From Acaryochloridaceae cyanobacterium VAR_48_metabat_390 (GTDB taxonomy: Bacteria > Cyanobacteriota > Cyanobacteriia > Thermosynechococcales > Thermosynechococcaceae): a DNA stretch of 64,000 nt. The stretch is from the NCBI GenBank assembly GCA_031422435.1, contig JANPLU010000020.1:1-64000 (forward strand), given 5' to 3'. Positions within the stretch are counted from its first letter, which is position 1. Each line of letters starts with the position of its first letter. Position numbers: made by a program. Shown in pieces: positions 20,601-26,600 of the stretch.

Positions 20601-23600
20601 CTAAAACGCTCTCTAAATCTTCGCGCAAAAGATTTTTAGAAACCTGATCTTCAGGGGTTTCACCATCGGATTCAATAAAGTCGCCGAGGCGTGAATCTTC
20701 TTCTTTCCCAATGGGAGTTTCTAAAGAGATGGGGAGCTGAGCCGATTTTGCAATAAACCGCAGCTTCTCAATGGTCATCTCCATTCGAGTGGCGATTTCT
20801 TCTTCGGTGGGTTTGCGACCCATTTCTTGAGACAGCAGCTTGGTTGTCTTTTTAATGCGAGAGATGGTTTCGTAAAGGTGAACCGGAAGCCGAATGGTGC
20901 GTGACTGATCGGCGATCGCCCGCGTAATGGCCTGACGAATCCACCAGGTGGCGTAGGTCGAAAACTTGTAGCCTTTCTCGTGGTCAAACTTCTCGGCGGC
21001 GCGAATTAGCCCTAAGCTGCCTTCTTGAATGAGATCTTGAAAAGACAGACCTCGGTTCATATACTTCTTGGCGATCGACACCACCAGTCTTAGGTTAGAC
21101 TGCACCATTTTGTCTTTAGCGCGTCGGCCGACGTGAAGACGGTGACGGAACGGGTGAAGCGTCATGCCAACGGCTTCGCCCCATTCGGCATCTAGGGGTT
21201 CGCGGTCTAGCTTCTCAACGAGATCGTCATAAACGCGCTCTAGCTCTAGTAGATCCGCAATTTTACGCGCTAGCTCAATTTCTTCATCGGCGCGAAGAAG
21301 GCGGATTCGACCAATTTCTTGGAGATAGAGCCGAATAGAATCTTCTGTGTAGTGCTTTTTCTTGGCAACACCGCGCTTGCGAGCAGCACCCTTTGTTTTT
21401 TCAGCCTTTTCTTCATCTTCTGTATCGGCATCATCGGGCTGAAAATCTTCGTCCTCGGCATCGTCCTCCGCAACTTCGCCCAACAGCAGCGTTTCTAGTT
21501 CGCTTGGGGGTGCTTTGACAGATTCTAATACAGTACTAGCTTTGGTCATGCCGAATTCCTCATACTCCCTGGTAAGTGAAAAGGAGAAGTTTATATGGTC
21601 AAAAAAGGTGTGGCTTTACTTTGGATTAAGCCGGATCGTCTAAAAAGTAGGGCAGATGTGAAGTAGCGCTCTCTAAACAATTTAATGAGTCTAGAGGGTG
21701 TTCACCATCTACTTAAAAAACAGTCATAAAGTAGAGCAGTAACTACCTTTACCCATGACGTAAACGATTGTAGCCTCTCTTACAGATTTTGGCTGTAGAC
21801 TTGCTAGGTTTCATGGACATTATGGCGCAGTCTTTAAAAGTCATGCACCAAAACTCTGGGCAAATGTTAACTTAGCTTAAGCAATGTCAAGATTTACTCT
21901 AAATCTTCTCTTTTTTGGGTGTTTTTAAGCGAACTGGCATTGGCATTCTTGGGCGATGTAGGTAGTGAAACGGAGAAGATGCTGCCTTCGTTTGGCGCTG
22001 ATTGTACTGCTACGGTTCCACCCATCCCCTCGATAAAGGTTTTAACCAGGGCTAAACCGAGTCCGGTGCCCCCGCTGCGATGACGGGATTCATCTACGCG
22101 GTAAAATCGCTCAAAAATGCGGGATTGATGTTTAAGTGCGATGCCAGAGCCGCGATCGCATACATGAATCAGGGCGTAGGGCCGCTGCTGCTCGAGCCGA
22201 ATGGTAATGGGGGACTTGGCGCTGGCATACTTGATGGCATTCTCAACCAAATTGATCAGAACCTGCTTAAGGCGATGCGGATCAGCATAGACCGGAACCA
22301 GTTCTGATGCCTCTAGCGTCACCGTATGATGATTAACCTGCTCCACCAGCTTAATGACGTCTGCCACGATGTCGTTGAGTACAAATAGTTCAGGTTGATA
22401 GGTCATATAGCCATCATCAGCGCGAGCGAGGTCGAGTAAATCTTTTAAGATCCGAATGGTGTGGTCGGTTTCAGAAGAAGCAATGCTGAGCGCTTCTTGC
22501 TGAGTATCAGTTAGGTTTTGTCCCCGTCGTCGCAGGCTATCTAAATAACCCCGCACGATGGTGAGGGGGGTACGCAACTCATGGGAAACGTTGCTCACAA
22601 ACTGCCTTTGCTGCTCAGCGACGGTACGCTGCTGTTGCCAAGCCTCAGAGAGCCGATGCAGCAGCATATTAAAGGTGTTGACCAGCTCCTGCACTTCTTG
22701 AGGGGCGCGAGGTACCGTAATGGGCTGTTCGCCCAAATCTTCTACCGAAATAGCCTGGGTCATTTGGCTGACTTGCCGCAGGGGTAGCAGCAGCCGTCTG
22801 GCTTCATAGGCAATGAGCAGAATGAGTAAAATGAGTGCGGTTAGGTTGCCCCCAATGAGGCTACGAGTGAGCTGATCAAATTTAGTCTGGTCTTCAGTGA
22901 GATCGTGGATTAAATACAGCGTCCCGATGGGCATCTGGCGCACCATCAGCGGACTGGAGCAGGTAATAAAGTCATACCCCTGCACTTGGTAGCTTTGAGG
23001 AATGCTGCTGATTGACAGCTGACTTACTAATTGTTGAAACAGCAGTGCATCAAGCTGGGGTTTTTGAATATCTAGGGGTTCTTTAACCACCAGCTTTTCG
23101 TCTCGGCGCTTCACGCCAATCCAGAGGTTATTGGCCGCACGGTTTTTGAGGGCTTTTTGAATGCTTTCCTCTAGAGGAAACATCTCTCGATACAGGACAA
23201 CATCTTCTTCGATCCGTTTTGCAGTTTCTTGGAGCGCCTGCTTATGGCTGGCGGTCAGAATATCTTGAGTTTTCCAGCAGGTCCAAAGGGTGACGGTGCT
23301 AAGCCCAACGGTAATGATGGCGGCAATGCGAAGGGTAAGGGTAAGCTGAAGCGATTGCGGTTGCGCCAAATTCTTCACCAGTCTGCGAGAGATGGCTTGG
23401 ATTTGGACTGAGGAAGACAACCGCATGGTTTAGCTTTAGCTCAAGATGATATGACCCTTCTCTAAAGTTTTAGACGAATTTGTGGGCTTCAGGATGATGA
23501 AGCGCTAACTGCTAGATAAGTTTTAGCTGAGAAGTTCGATCTGCTCAAGCTGTGGTGGCAGTCTCAATCAATGCTAGTTTTGCGGTGAGGGCTGTAGAAT

Positions 23601-26600
23601 CTGCTGCTGAATTAGCTGATCGATCAGGGTTGTGAGGTGTGAATGCAGATTGTCGCCAGGGTACTGCGGAGATAGCTGGGCGATCGCCGCTTCCAATCCC
23701 TCCATTTTCAAAATTACCCGCCAAAACGCCGCTGCTTTACCGGACAACCCAAAGGTTTCTCCGGTCGGTAGGTGCCCAATCAATATCTGACCATTGAGTT
23801 CTCCAAAAACAATATTTTCAGTGGGCTGTAGCCAGCCCTGCACCGTCGGCTGTACCTGCATGGGTAAAGTCGTGCCGATGGATGGACGGTTTTTGAGGCA
23901 GACCTCAGACGGTAAAATATGCCAGCTTTGCTCTAGGCTCGTCGTTGAAGGGTTCCACAGCAGATGGTCAGGTTCATTCCAGGGGAAGCAGATATAGTCT
24001 GGTAGCCCTAGCCAATACCGATGCCCTGCCAAACGCGCTTGGTTCTGAGTTTGCCAGGTTGTGTAGTTAGCCCCCATTGTTGTAGGGCCGTGGTCATAGA
24101 GGTCTTGACCGCTCAGGCATTGGATGACGGTCGGTTCACGGATGGCGATCGCCGTTCTCAGATCCGGATGGGAATAAAGGGTTGCAAACACTAGTGCCTG
24201 CTGGGGATATTGCTGAAGCACACGGTAAAACCGAGAGCCGCTAAGGGCGCAGTCATCCACAATGACGACAGGCGTATCACTGGGTTCAGACACATTAAGC
24301 TGTTCAGCGCGTAGATCCAGCATGTAAGACAGCATACCTAACACAATCAGTCCACCCCTTGGCACGCCATAGAACTGAAATTCCCGTAGGGCTTTCGACC
24401 CAAACGTGGTCTTTAATTGGTTAGCCAACTGCTCACAGGCCTTAGTTGCTTCGGCATAGGTGATATATCGCAGTCGCCCACAGGCTTGGTTTAGAAACGG
24501 AGCCTGAAGGCTAATTTGCCCTAATACTTTGGCAGAGAACGTTCCTAAGATTGCCAAAACGGGAGTTGGCGCGGCACGAATAATCCCAAGGCACTGGGGA
24601 ACTTCTTGCCAAAGAGGATGAAGGGCGATCGCTGCCGCAACATAATGCAGTGACTGCTCTAGCGTTGCTAGCCCTAGCTGCTGCCCGTAATGGAGCAGCG
24701 CGTCTTTTTCAAAGGGCAGCGTGTAGCAGCGATAGGTCATCGGTTAAGTAAGACCAACACAGCCTAGATTATGGGGTGCTAAATAAGATTCGATAAACGT
24801 AATCAGTTGAGGGAGTTGTTCAAGAGAACGCGGTCTTTGCAGATAGGCCATAGGGATTTCTTTGGCTAAACGGCTGCACTGATGAAAGTGCTGTACCCGA
24901 CAGTTTTGGTCATAGAGCATTTTAGTGGCACGTGAATGCTGAATGAGTTCTGGAAATGCCTGGGTGCGCGATAAAGGCTGAATCTGGTTAAAGTCCCCCC
25001 CTTGCAGGACAAAGAGATGCTTTAAGGGGACTGGCATTTGGGCAAACCGAGTTTCTAACCGCTGAATTTGTTTATGGCTTAGCGAATGCAGCAGCGGCAT
25101 TGCGTCAGTCTGGGCACCCACTGCCATCATTGCATCGGGCAACAGCTTTACTTCAGGAAAACTCGGCACCACTTGAGGGGTGGCAGTATCTAAACACAGC
25201 GCCATAACGTCATCGGTGATTAGCCGATAGCCCCGCTGGTGAAAAGCCGAGGCCAGAGTAGACTTGCCCCAGCCACTGCCGCCGAGAAAGGCGATAGCTC
25301 CGCACCAAGAGTCCGCTCCGCATTTAGAGTCCGCCATATCCTCACGCGCCACACAGCTTGCATGAAGCACCATCAGCCCTCGCTGCCGCAGCACAAACGC
25401 CATTGCAGTGCCCAAAACGTAGGCTCTCATCACCGCCCGATCCGTTTCTAAAGGTGCATCTATGATCACTTCGCACCCGTCGCGAATGAGTAGCTTTACG
25501 TTGAGCGGCAGGTCAATCAAAATTTGATTGCTGAGGTCAGGCTCTGCTGCAACCTGATGGAGTGAGTCAAACCGAACCACAATATCTGGCGGTTCAGAAT
25601 CTAAGACAGGCTGCAAAAGCGGCAGTTCTGACTGTATGCGTAAACCGTAGGCAAAAGAGGTGTACATCCCGACTCAAAAAAGACCAAACTGCTCCAGACA
25701 GTAAATAGGAACTTACCCAAAAGTCAACCACTTTAGGTCTTATTTTTCTAAGAAGGTCAGTTTAGCGACAAAGTAGAAATGCTAAGCTTGGCTTTCGTCT
25801 AGGGGTAAAGTTCTTACCTTTAAGGATGCCCTGTTGTGGTCTAAGAAATATATTTTTTGGGTCAGCCAACCGTTTTGGCTAATTCTAATAGCCCACTAAC
25901 GTACATCCAGACTAAAAATAAGGATGGCTTAAAGGCGAATTTTGCTCCAAATTGGCAGAAGTGGGCAGCGCAATGGGGGCGTGATTCAGTGCCGCAATGT
26001 GCCCGTTGCGAACGTTGACTTCTCCTCGCAGCATTGTCTAAGCGCCAGCGATCGATTGGTATTGGTTAGCCCAAGGCATGGAATTAGCGCACTGCTGTGT
26101 TTTTCAACTAAAAATTGACTGCCGTTGTTGAGCGCCGAATGCGGATACTGCGCAGGCCACTGTCCATTGAAAACAGGAGAGTATCAAAAATGCCCTGCGC
26201 CGATGTCTTCATACTGATGAACAGAACAAACTCTCTCGTCAGGCCATAATAGAGTTAATAGAGACAATGGGGTTTATCAGTTTCCGTTGCTAAGCAGAGA
26301 GGCAATTGAGCAAATGTTAGGACTCAGTGAATTAAAACAGACGCGGGTTTATCAAGATGCTTTGCAAGAAGGTATTGAACGAGGGCGATCGCTAATTTTA
26401 AAGCTATTGACCTGTCGTGTCGGGGGTCTGCCTGCTCAATCTGAAGCTAAGATTATGAAGCTTTCCATCACTCAGCTTGAAGCGTTGGGAGAGGCACTCC
26501 TCAACTTTTCGAGTGCTGCTGATTTACAAAATTGGCTGACTCGAGTATCTCCTTAGCTGCTGAGGGGAAATGTGATTGCACAACTGCCCATCAACGAATT

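Follow-up and report, generated by a model that had tools for sequence, protein, structure and literature searches.

A pair of adjacent genes in the window analyzed here (64,000 nt of contig JANPLU010000020.1 from Acaryochloridaceae cyanobacterium VAR_48_metabat_390) encodes a kinase and a phosphoribosyltransferase (PRTase) fused to a RiPP recognition element (RRE), and the two apparently represent a widespread, undescribed accessory module of lasso-peptide pathways. Both genes lie on the minus strand and start with ATG. The first (24744..25667) encodes P0002, an HPr-kinase-like P-loop kinase of 307 aa, and the second (23574..24740) encodes P0001, the PRTase-RRE fusion protein of 388 aa. The kinase stop and the fusion start are separated by 3 nt; this layout had been given in an earlier note on this DNA and was confirmed by the ORFs and their translations. 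We consider the chances about even that the pair is a trans-acting, leader-guided accessory tailoring module for peptides with lasso-type leaders, modifying the serine of a Gly-Ser in the peptide tail, most likely in the precursor encoded by the lasso cluster on contig C84 of the same genome. No published description of a PRTase-RRE fusion was found in the literature.

The AlphaFold2 model of P0001 (pLDDT 93, pTM 0.87) matched purine PRTases and lasso B1 proteins and, judged from this model, its two domains, a type-I PRTase and a lasso-B1-type RRE, are real. The PRTase domain (residues ~89-295; 23856..24476, minus strand) was matched to XGPRT by Foldseek (6kp5_A; E 1.6e-5) and to HGXPRT by VIA-align (4z1o_A; Z 11.6, rmsd 4.5, 145 residues aligned over model positions 90-295). 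It contains PRGG (127-130) and VVIVDDCALSGSR (158-170), the latter part of the motif VVIVDDCALSGSRF at residues 158-171. In an alignment of 24 family sequences (38-87% identity), P127, R128, G129, G130, D162, D163, C164, G168, and R170 were invariant; we take PRGG, D162, D163, G168, and R170 to correspond to the PPi and PRPP loops of type-I PRTases. The same alignment revealed a second conserved region (C251, F252, W254, E256, P257, D258, W262, N263, C281, L282, and K283) that is Cys/Trp-rich and probably faces the acceptor. Pfam Pribosyltran matched 8 of the 24 family members (best E 1.8e-7), and P0001 itself gave no PF00156 match at E<=1. P0001 shares its core fold, the R-G-G loop, and the acidic PRPP motif with type-I purine PRTases (XGPRT 1a95/6kp5, HGXPRT 4z1o). 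It differs from them in its ~20% identity, its extra N-terminal domain, and its acceptor-side region, and its acceptor would be a peptide in place of a base. We know of no type-I PRTase that acts on a peptide. The N-terminal domain (residues ~1-88; 24477..24740, minus strand) is a confidently folded alpha/beta region in the model; most PRTase structural matches start at model residue 81-100 and so scarcely cover it.

The C-terminal RRE (residues ~302-388; 23577..23837, minus strand) is PqqD-like. The C-terminal 85 residues of P0001 superposed on TfuB1 (6jx3_B; Z 12.3, rmsd 1.9, 83 aligned) and TbiB1 (5v1u_A, also solved as 5v1v; Z 11.9), and the family profile matched TbiB1 (E 1.5e-9) and the lasso B1 protein 9x90_B (E 1.6e-5) in the PDB. 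Pfam PqqD matched 19 of the 24 family members, and its match to P0001 (residues 324-382; E 0.0035, 18.1 bits) lies below the cut-off of 23.4. Collectively, the model and profile comparisons support assignment of the fused RRE to the lasso B1 type. B1 proteins, whether standing alone or joined to the B2 protease, function in leader removal, whereas P0001 carries its RRE on the C-terminal side of a PRTase.

P0002 matched Pfam Hpr_kinase_C (E 0.0011, 18.9 bits; below the cut-off of 33.3) together with AAA_28 and AAA_33, and NCBIfam HprK_rel_A (E 3.7e-7, under its cut-off). The Pfam figures reported earlier for both proteins, all under curated cut-offs, were reproduced exactly. Alignment of 55 kinases showed H102, G134, K135, and D153 to be invariant and D152 to be 98% conserved. 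A P0002 paralogue had been placed in the genome's lasso cluster and was recovered there by tblastn (34.0% over 297 aa, E 1e-51; C84:30800-31654). The kinase tree grouped the clade of the pair's kinase with cyanobacterial in-cluster kinases and also resolved a distinct clade whose genes directly follow the fusion gene in 30 loci.

The PRTase-RRE family is sharply delimited. Repetition of the earlier homologue search returned the same 525 proteins, with PF00156 on 7 among the 120 matches listed, and a search with the N-terminal 295 aa of P0001 alone yielded 409 cluster representatives at E<=1e-10 and 441 at E<=1e-3. Relatives of the fusion at 80 loci represent ~14 phyla, and the family is not mainly cyanobacterial. 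An HPrK-like gene was present in 68 of these 80 loci, and in all 36 whose flanks extend 5 kb or more in each direction. Lasso cyclases of the Asn_synthase type were found in 61/80 and NTP_transf_5 genes in 16/80. In every full-flank locus outside the window's clade (33/33), the cyclase and the HPrK-like kinase were both present; B2 was present in 25/33 and a separate short PqqD protein (B1) in 24/33, indicating that the fusion is an extra RRE protein and not the B1 of the cluster.

The precursors encoded upstream of the fusion gene (61 distinct sequences from 52 loci) share a signature in the core. An Asp/Glu ring acid occupies core position 7-10 in 59 of the 61, and is followed by Gly-Ser in 53 (mostly G13-S14) and by Gly-Ser or Gly-Thr in 58; in 500 shuffles of the precursor tails, the count averaged 19.6 and never exceeded 31. 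Across 12 cyanobacterial precursors, no core residues are invariant except the ring Asp and the Gly-Ser. The correlation of Gly-Ser with the fusion is imperfect, with exceptions in G018, which has no fusion and a precursor with N-G-S, and G008, which has the fusion and a precursor without G-S. Only 4/61 precursors end in Ser. The earlier note cautioned that the known C-terminal Ser phosphorylation may not apply to the lasso core of this genome, which ends in Lys, but the objection is moot because the conserved candidate site in the associated precursors is an internal Ser, not the C-terminus.

The C84 cluster is ordered B1, B2, cyclase, precursor, kinase, and ABC exporter. Its B1 scores above the cut-off of lasso_PqqD_Bac (83.4 bits against 80), as does its precursor for NCBIfam lasso_cyano (50.1 bits against 33). 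The precursor core, AFGSSNAADTIFFNGNAFGNATGSQDGNVVPK, contains a ring Asp9 and Gly23-Ser24, and its sequence places the precursor in the same family as those adjoining PRTase-RRE genes elsewhere. A regex scan of the genome for leaders gave four matches, among which the C84 precursor carried the one true lasso-type leader; the scan missed the CrtA-linked peptide considered below. Since the cluster has its own kinase and B1, it has no visible need of the detached pair.

The pair itself is surrounded by housekeeping-type genes (CHAT, gatB-like, sigma factor, rsmB, and topA), and precursor, cyclase, B1, and B2 are all absent beside it, both in the window and in 9/9 related clade loci; the absence of an adjoining precursor had already been noted. 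A distance of ~72 kb separates the pair from the lasso cluster in G009, a complete relative. The 650-nt gap upstream of the pair, previously credited with only short doubtful ORFs, appears empty because it holds a decayed CHAT gene, not a precursor. In Altericista (L005), an intact CHAT protein gene precedes the pair (Pfam CHAT E 1.3e-66), and tblastn with its product identified three collinear pieces in the gap (residues 241-274, 273-309, and 490-537; 57-76% identity), which place the remnant at 25891..26242 on the minus strand, outside the module. The fusion was present in 8/9 same-genus genomes, 1/27 other genomes of the family, and 0/24 genomes of other families of the class. Across 61 related genomes, all 10 with the fusion had a strong cyclase match (E<=1e-100), and none of the 41 genomes without such a match had the fusion. 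Half of the genomes with a strong cyclase match (10/20) had no fusion, which is consequently dispensable for lasso formation. In the tree, the 10 rows of detached copies formed a single clade (SH-aLRT 100) amid 50 in-cluster copies; the pair was thus detached once in the window's cyanobacterial clade.

Relevant chemistry is described in two papers, in which Ser residues of lasso precursors and of linear polyphosphorylated peptide (LPP) precursors are phosphorylated by HPr-kinase homologues (PMC8498205, PMC13381572). The paeninodin-type enzymes (PadeK, ThcoK, and SyanK; PMC8498205) are HPrK-like P-loop kinases encoded in lasso clusters, with the linear precursor as their substrate; P0002 retains the conserved His, Walker-A Lys, and Asp-Asp and has its paralogue in a lasso cluster. 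They target a C-terminal Ser, and their clusters are described without a PRTase partner, whereas here the conserved Ser lies inside the peptide, most often at position 14, and the P0002 gene lies outside any cluster. Pseudomycoidin (PsmK/PsmN; PMC8498205) follows a comparable two-step logic in which a kinase generates phospho-Ser and a second enzyme adds a sugar to that phosphate. The second enzyme is a nucleotidyltransferase that adds a hexose; here that role would fall to a type-I PRTase that carries an RRE and presumably draws on PRPP. As a further parallel, NTP_transf_5 genes accompany 16 of the 80 loci. The LPP system (Popov et al. 2026; PMC13381572) combines an RRE with the HprK-like kinase LppK, which phosphorylates an internal Ser, and is an accessory pathway that faces a leader-discrimination problem (W vs Y) beside a lasso pathway in one genome. 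The module proposed here would share these features, but "phosphoribosyl" and "PRTase" do not occur in that paper.

The detached pair could have acquired another substrate. The window genome encodes a non-lasso WxxP-leader peptide, MKIKKSWNVPHLTKYGTVEQLTE-MPYTDLQQINQFVLNGGSSVFGLFASLEGL (G000:C134:29329-29487), beside cyanoexosortase A (CrtA), and retargeting of the pair to this peptide would leave C84 with its own B1 and kinase, giving two parallel leader-guided pathways that the aromatic position in the leader motif would keep distinct. We regard this as unlikely. In Altericista, the gene that comes immediately after the fusion (L005:9303-9452) encodes a paralogous peptide, 59% identical to the copy in the window genome, which points to another substrate. 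The window genome has a pair each of RREs, kinases, and leader-bearing peptides. The CrtA-linked leader matches lasso_cyano over positions 2-22 only (E 2.5e-4), core positions 7-9 of the peptide lack a ring acid, and every one of the 10 fusion-bearing genomes, as well as G005, has a strong copy (E<=1e-14). According to PMC13381572, W versus Y in the leader motif sets RRE specificity where two pathways coexist. Such a peptide nevertheless lies beside the pair in only one of the nine clade loci (L001-L009), not in the window, and in 11 genomes it is fixed beside CrtA instead. It also has no conserved Gly-Ser. At 52 loci from other lineages, the fusion gene adjoins a lasso precursor of the Y/F type that has a ring acid. 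Weaker homologues in nine fusion-less genomes (G017, G018, G019, G025, G026, G030, G032, G033, and G035) indicate that its distribution tracks the lasso cluster rather than the fusion.

It is also conceivable, though we think it doubtful, that the PRTase domain does not act as a transferase. In that case, the fusion would be an RRE adaptor delivering the precursor to a kinase that has no RRE, with the PRTase-like domain as a docking platform or a PRPP/nucleotide/(p)ppGpp sensor gating the modification, and Ser phosphorylation would be the sole covalent change. PRTase folds double as ligand sensors, and regulatory or non-catalytic examples (PyrR 1w30, PurR 1o57, ppGpp-bound 5vog, and the PRPP-synthetase-associated protein 2c4k) were among the structural matches of P0001. 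The invariable partnership with the kinase, usually the adjacent gene, the distinct clade of kinases that directly follow the fusion, and the missing PF00156 match of P0001 fit such a role, and the conserved PRPP-site residues suit ligand binding as well as catalysis. However, invariance of the PPi loop, acidic pair, and phosphate loop in all 24 sequences exceeds the needs of a sensor, and the putative acceptor-side region is conserved as well. Known lasso kinases need no such adaptor and, according to PMC8498205, depend little on the remainder of the peptide. It is far less probable that the pair left peptide natural-product biosynthesis after detachment, to modify a protein or small molecule or to act in regulation, for example with the neighboring histidine kinase. 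The histidine kinase gene lies 147 nt downstream on the same strand, amid the housekeeping genes, but neither it nor the sigma factor gene adjoins the pair in any of the nine related loci. The RRE is still conserved and lasso-B1-like, a lasso cluster is present in every pair-bearing genome, and both genes are under purifying selection (dN/dS 0.08-0.12 for the PRTase-RRE gene and 0.09-0.19 against orthologues for the kinase gene).

In the preferred reading, a lasso-tailoring module acting in trans, the C-terminal RRE of P0001 would dock the precursor leader (K-K-x-[Y/F]-x-x-P-x-L ... T) and bring the core to the HPrK-like kinase and the PRTase domain, with the conserved Ser of the tail Gly-Ser, past the ring-forming Asp, as the target. 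The kinase would phosphorylate this Ser, after which the PRTase domain would draw on PRPP to add 5-phosphoribose. The sugar could go onto the phosphate, and the resulting phosphodiester-linked sugar phosphate would parallel the hexose-on-phosphate of pseudomycoidin; alternatively, it could be joined to the hydroxyl itself. Most lineages encode the module within the lasso cluster, alongside the precursor; in this cyanobacterial genus, it detached once, together with a duplicated kinase, and would now most likely act in trans on the C84 precursor. The boldest reading in the earlier note was of a leader-guided module that puts a phosphoribosyl or related group on a peptide, perhaps the lasso precursor; its leader-guided link to lasso peptides gains support from the 33/33 full-flank loci, the B1-type RRE, and the Asp9 and Gly-Ser of the C84 precursor, while phosphoribosyl transfer and the C84 precursor as substrate are proposals, with the CrtA-linked peptide as a competitor for the substrate role. 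The module may put a new kind of decoration on a conserved serine.

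The phosphoribosyltransferase (PRTase)-RRE fusion protein P0001 (388 aa; ORF at 23574–24740, minus strand) and the HPr-kinase-like protein P0002 (307 aa; ORF at 24744–25667, minus strand) are encoded head to tail on the same strand, 3 bases apart. P0001 was modeled confidently by AlphaFold2 from 24 homologues (pLDDT 93, pTM 0.87), and the model contains a PRTase core fold at residues about 89–295. Foldseek matched the model to XGPRT (6kp5_A, E 1.6e-5, TM 0.57 on the target) and VIA-align to HGXPRT (4z1o_A, Z 11.6, rmsd 4.5, 145 aligned); the 41 VIA-align chains at Z ≥ 8 all have the PRTase fold, except for three matches to the RRE domain (6jx3_B, 5v1u_A, and 8hkr_B). 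The PRPP-binding motif of type-I PRTases comprises a hydrophobic run, two acidic residues, and an S/T-G loop. P0001 carries such a motif, VVIVDDCALSGSR, at residues 158–170, as well as a pyrophosphate-loop motif, PRGG, at 127–130; in type-I PRTases, the RGG forms the pyrophosphate loop, and the two acidic residues together with the S-G-x-R loop form the PRPP site. P127, R128, G129, and G130 and D162, D163, C164, G168, and R170 are invariant in the 24 aligned fusion proteins, which share a second invariant block (C208; C251, F252, W254, E256, P257, D258, W262, N263; C281, L282, K283). Four Cys are thus invariant in 24/24 proteins (C164, inside the PRPP motif, C208, C251, and C281), and a metal site or disulphide is possible. 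When the N-terminal 295 residues of P0001 were searched against 1.84 billion representatives, 441 matches were obtained at E ≤ 1e-3, 409 at 1e-10, and 307 at 1e-30, and lengths were mostly 330–430 aa among the 150 matches listed. The counts across cut-offs and these lengths indicate that the family is sharply bounded and that the fusion is the rule.

The C-terminal domain of P0001 (residues 302–384) adopts a winged-helix RRE fold similar to that of B1 proteins, the leader-binding proteins of lasso-peptide clusters. VIA-align paired it with TfuB1 (6jx3_B, Z 12.3, rmsd 1.9, 83 of 85 aligned) and TbiB1 (5v1u_A, Z 11.9), Foldseek with 5v1v_A (TM 0.81), and the fusion-family profile recovered TbiB1 from the PDB by sequence (E 1.5e-9). 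The domain matches on which the earlier note had relied were reproduced for both proteins, each below its Pfam cut-off: PqqD on P0001 (E 0.0035; 18.1 bits, cut-off 23.4) and Hpr_kinase_C on P0002 (E 0.0011; 18.9 versus 33.3 bits). Its homologue search again returned 525 proteins. Across the family, Pfam PqqD (PF05402) matches 19/24 members at E ≤ 0.01 (best E 3.2e-13). Complex prediction for the P0001 RRE (residues 286–388) with the lasso precursor encoded on contig C84 of the same genome gave a score of 0.01 (mark 0.32), which counts neither for nor against binding.

P0002 possesses an HPrK-like catalytic core comprising a His, a Walker-A GK[ST], and an Asp-Asp pair, and matches NCBIfam HprK_rel_A at E 3.7e-7 (29.5 bits, below the cut-off of 200). 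All 55 kinases compared share H102, G134, K135, and D153, and 98% also have D152. The conserved His, Walker-A Lys, and Asp-Asp presumably correspond to the equivalent residues of HPrK/P. P0002 also has a 12-residue insertion with two Cys just ahead of the P-loop (residues 115–126, MADSKCGADSWC; 25290–25325, minus strand), which is half as long in L001, the locus of a close relative, and absent from the other aligned kinases.

A scan with one genome per species yielded 80 loci with relatives of the fusion gene. Based on record titles, these belong to Cyanobacteriota, Acidobacteriota, Gemmatimonadota, Chloroflexota, Rhodothermota, Actinomycetota, Spirochaetota, Pseudomonadota, Thermodesulfobacteriota, Deinococcota, Nitrospirota, Bacteroidota, and Sumerlaeota, plus two methanogen metagenome-assembled genomes (MAGs). 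An HPrK-like gene is present in 68/80 loci, and in all 36 with at least 5 kb on both sides. An Asn-synthase-type lasso cyclase was detected in 61/80 by tblastn (greedy ORF clustering gave too low a count, 50/80), including 33/33 of the loci with at least 5 kb on both sides that lie outside the window's clade; 24 of these 33 have a separate short PqqD protein (B1) and 25 a transglutaminase-like B2. ABC exporters are common among the 80 loci, and NTP_transf_5 genes occur in 16. In heterocystous cyanobacteria, the typical order is B1-B2-C-A-K-ABC-fusion-N; elsewhere it is C-A-fusion-K. Judged by this gene content, the fusion is an extra lasso-cluster enzyme with an RRE, and a kinase always occurs with it. 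Compact in-cluster versions of the module are found in cultured Halomonas and Litchfieldella strains (L063, L069, and L077), namely Halomonas salinarum G5-11, Litchfieldella qijiaojingensis KCTC 22228, and Halomonas ventosae. On each of the two methanogen contigs (L032, Methanospirillaceae; L044, Methanoregulaceae), the fusion occurs with a lasso cyclase and two precursors of the lasso type; if the binning is right, methanogens would thus have lasso clusters of the kinase/PRTase type. A Syntrophobacteraceae MAG (L019) has two precursors and two kinases in one cluster: a peptide with a WxxP leader and a GGSDDF core adjoins a kinase of the cyanobacterial type, and a YxxP precursor adjoins the fusion and a kinase of a second clade, and the locus thus offers a naturally occurring example of both leader types together.

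The setting of the pair in the window is different from that of these clusters. No cyclase, B1, B2, or precursor gene was found beside it in the window or in the clade loci L001–L009, and tblastn detected a lasso cyclase in 0/9 of the latter. Its neighbors are ordinary genes for a HAMP/HisKA histidine kinase, a group-1/2 sigma factor, rsmB, and topA; neither the histidine kinase nor the sigma factor adjoins the pair in L001–L009, and both were rejected as members of the module. The upstream gap, in which the earlier note had seen no precursor gene, indeed lacks one and holds the remnant of a CHAT-domain gene (25891–26242, minus strand) from which the middle has been deleted. The remnant was recognized with the intact CHAT protein encoded ahead of the pair in Altericista (locus L005; Pfam CHAT E 1.3e-66), which matches the window in three collinear pieces. 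At the corresponding position, the CHAT gene is intact in L005 and L007–L009. The short ORFs of the gap were discarded as precursor candidates; none is conserved, and the 40-codon one is the C-terminal end of the dead CHAT gene. An 89-codon ORF with a TTG start (26287–26556, plus strand) lies between the remnant and rsmB. The gene set that accompanies the kinase in linear polyphosphorylated peptide (LPP) clusters (SpI-like peptidase, discrete RRE, NTP transferase, and MsbA-like pump) was not found beside the pair, whose neighbors are the CHAT remnant, histidine kinase, sigma factor, and rsmB; no search aimed at the SpI-like peptidase was made. NTP_transf_5 homologues of this genome are located on other contigs (C16 and C128), and a weak PF00156 match next to the one on C16 proved to be an ordinary orotate-PRTase-like gene. 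A promoter and terminator scan of 23200–26400 gave no promoter-like site and one terminator-like site, within the fusion gene, both counts being below the shuffle mean. Sequencing runs on record comprised 8 DNA rows from 2 studies and no RNA. In L001, an unrelated 220-codon gene (2411–3073) is inserted between the kinase and fusion genes, indicating that the two need not be translationally coupled.

Lasso precursors near the relatives were examined with the leader pattern [KR]..[YFW]xxPx[LIV]...G....T, and 61 distinct peptides with such a leader were found upstream of the fusion gene in 52 loci. An Asp or Glu occurs at core position 7–10 in 59/61, usually at 8 or 9. It is followed by Gly-Ser in 53/61 and by Gly-Ser or Gly-Thr in 58/61; in most precursors with the motif these are G13-S14, as in GLTRPGSDAKSGSAASQGT. 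Tail shuffling (500 shuffles) gave a mean of 19.6 peptides with Gly-Ser and a maximum of 31, versus the 53 observed. Across the cores of 12 cyanobacterial precursors, nothing is invariant except the ring Asp and, 13–17 residues further on, a Gly-Ser. Only 4/61 precursors end in Ser. Paeninodin-type HPr-kinase homologues phosphorylate a C-terminal Ser, according to the section of PMC8498205 that treats them, whereas the Gly-Ser of the fusion-associated precursors is internal. LppK offers a precedent for an internal Ser target, as described in one part of PMC13381572.

Contig C84 of the window's genome encodes B1, B2, cyclase, precursor, kinase, and ABC exporter in the cyanobacterial order, and the fusion gene is absent. 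The precursor passes NCBIfam lasso_cyano (50.1 bits versus 33) and the B1 passes lasso_PqqD_Bac. Its core, AFGSSNAADTIFFNGNAFGNATGSQDGNVVPK, has Asp9 and Gly23-Ser24, the signature common to the in-cluster relatives, and ends in Lys, in contrast to the substrates of PadeK-type lasso kinases, which end in Ser. Among 61 related genomes, the fusion is present in 10 and a strong cyclase match (E ≤ 1e-100) in 20, and all 10 fall within those 20. Seven fusion-bearing genomes (G001–G004, G007, G009, and G022) have lasso precursors with T/D-G-S motifs; four without the fusion (G019, G021, G033, and G035) have precursors that lack Gly-Ser, and those of G019, G021, and G035 end in Ser. The exceptions are G018, with N-G-S but no fusion, and G008, with the fusion but no G-S. 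Fusion presence and a precursor Gly-Ser appear to go together, but this match is suggestive only because these kin are not independent.

When 60 fusion proteins were placed in a tree, all 10 detached copies grouped in a single clade (SH-aLRT 100), which lies nested among the 50 in-cluster copies under midpoint rooting, with the root not established; one detachment is enough to explain this tree. The kinases of the pair also form a clade (SH-aLRT 99) and group with cyanobacterial in-cluster kinases, including that of C84, while those encoded after the fusion gene in other phyla constitute a second large clade. Both genes of the pair are under purifying selection (dN/dS 0.08–0.19 versus L001 and L005).

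Other explanations concern the enzyme and its substrate. The PRTase domain of P0001 could be a non-catalytic adaptor or sensor. P0001 does not reach the PF00156 gathering cut-off (no match at E ≤ 1) and scored 14.9 bits with PRTase-CE (cut-off 27); PF00156 matches 8/24 family members at E ≤ 0.01 (best E 1.8e-7), and hhalign of the family with PyrR from the same genome gave a probability of 2.4% (E 0.019), with the alignment confined to the PRPP motif, so that this comparison was not counted as evidence. Judged from sequence, the ligand site looks intact, because the residues that form the pyrophosphate loop and PRPP site in type-I PRTases are invariant, and we consider a purely non-catalytic role rather unlikely.

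The pair might also serve a different peptide from the C84 precursor. A regular-expression scan of the genome for lasso-type leaders gave four matches, of which only the C84 precursor was real, and it missed a 53-aa peptide (P0126; leader KKSWNVPHLTKYGTVEQLTE) that was found by tblastn on contig C134 (29329–29487, plus strand; L106:4330–4488). This WxxP-leader peptide has no ring acid at core position 7–9, and its gene lies outside the window, directly upstream of that for cyanoexosortase A (TIGR03763, E 1.8e-61), a pairing kept in 11 genomes. In Altericista sp. CCNU0014, a 50-codon gene (L005:9303–9452) directly downstream of the fusion gene encodes a paralogue with a lasso-like WxxP leader and, again, no ring acid at position 7–9; no other clade locus has a peptide gene next to the pair. 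When two pathways coexist in a cell, RRE specificity depends on whether the leader has W or Y, as PMC13381572 reports, so the pair could act on the exosortase-linked peptide. Homologues of that peptide occur in 20/61 genomes, 19 of which also belong to the 20 with a strong cyclase match, so its occurrence follows that of the lasso cluster, not that of the fusion. The peptide may be a second, exosortase-linked client of the lasso leader machinery, and its being the substrate of the pair in place of the C84 precursor is unlikely.

What was observed for the module comprises two folds, conserved site residues, a kinase as obligatory partner, a location within lasso clusters elsewhere, a Gly-Ser signature, a single detachment, and purifying selection. 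To our knowledge, the PRTase fold is not known to act on peptides. A full-text literature search (supplements and subscription journals outside its scope) found no publication on a PRTase in a lasso or RRE context; "ribosyl" and "kinase" each have 0 occurrences in the main text of RRE-Finder, and a term look-up in PMC13381572 likewise gave nothing on PRTases. In the mechanism we favor, the RRE of P0001 would bind the leader of the C84 precursor, with the pair acting in trans from a housekeeping locus; the kinase would phosphorylate the conserved Ser, and the PRTase domain might add 5-phosphoribose taken from PRPP, on the model of pseudomycoidin, in which a sugar is attached to phosphate (PMC8498205). 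More generally, we tentatively propose, as a possible but still doubtful reading, that a family in which a PRTase is joined to a lasso-type RRE and an HPrK-like kinase is the constant partner (~400 sequence clusters from at least 14 phyla, methanogen MAGs among them) installs a RiPP modification not yet described. This would be a PRPP-derived 5-phosphoribosyl group, probably attached via phosphate, on the Gly-Ser serine of the lasso tail, added in trans from a housekeeping locus in this cyanobacterial genus. Lasso-peptide tailoring itself is already known; the enzyme family, the target position, and the detached, trans-acting arrangement would be new.

Lasso clusters with this module make up a large subclass that cuts across phyla and is marked by an internal Ser of conserved position and by an extra enzyme, and the in-cluster versions in Halomonas and Litchfieldella make the question directly testable. 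If the PRTase is active, it would represent a new RiPP reaction, in which a sugar phosphate from PRPP is transferred under leader guidance, and would supply a portable RRE-guided catalyst and a handle for mining, namely the fusion together with Asp-x4-Gly-Ser cores. The window also shows that a tailoring module is able to move out of its cluster and still be maintained by selection; cluster-based genome mining would therefore mispredict the C84 lasso product.
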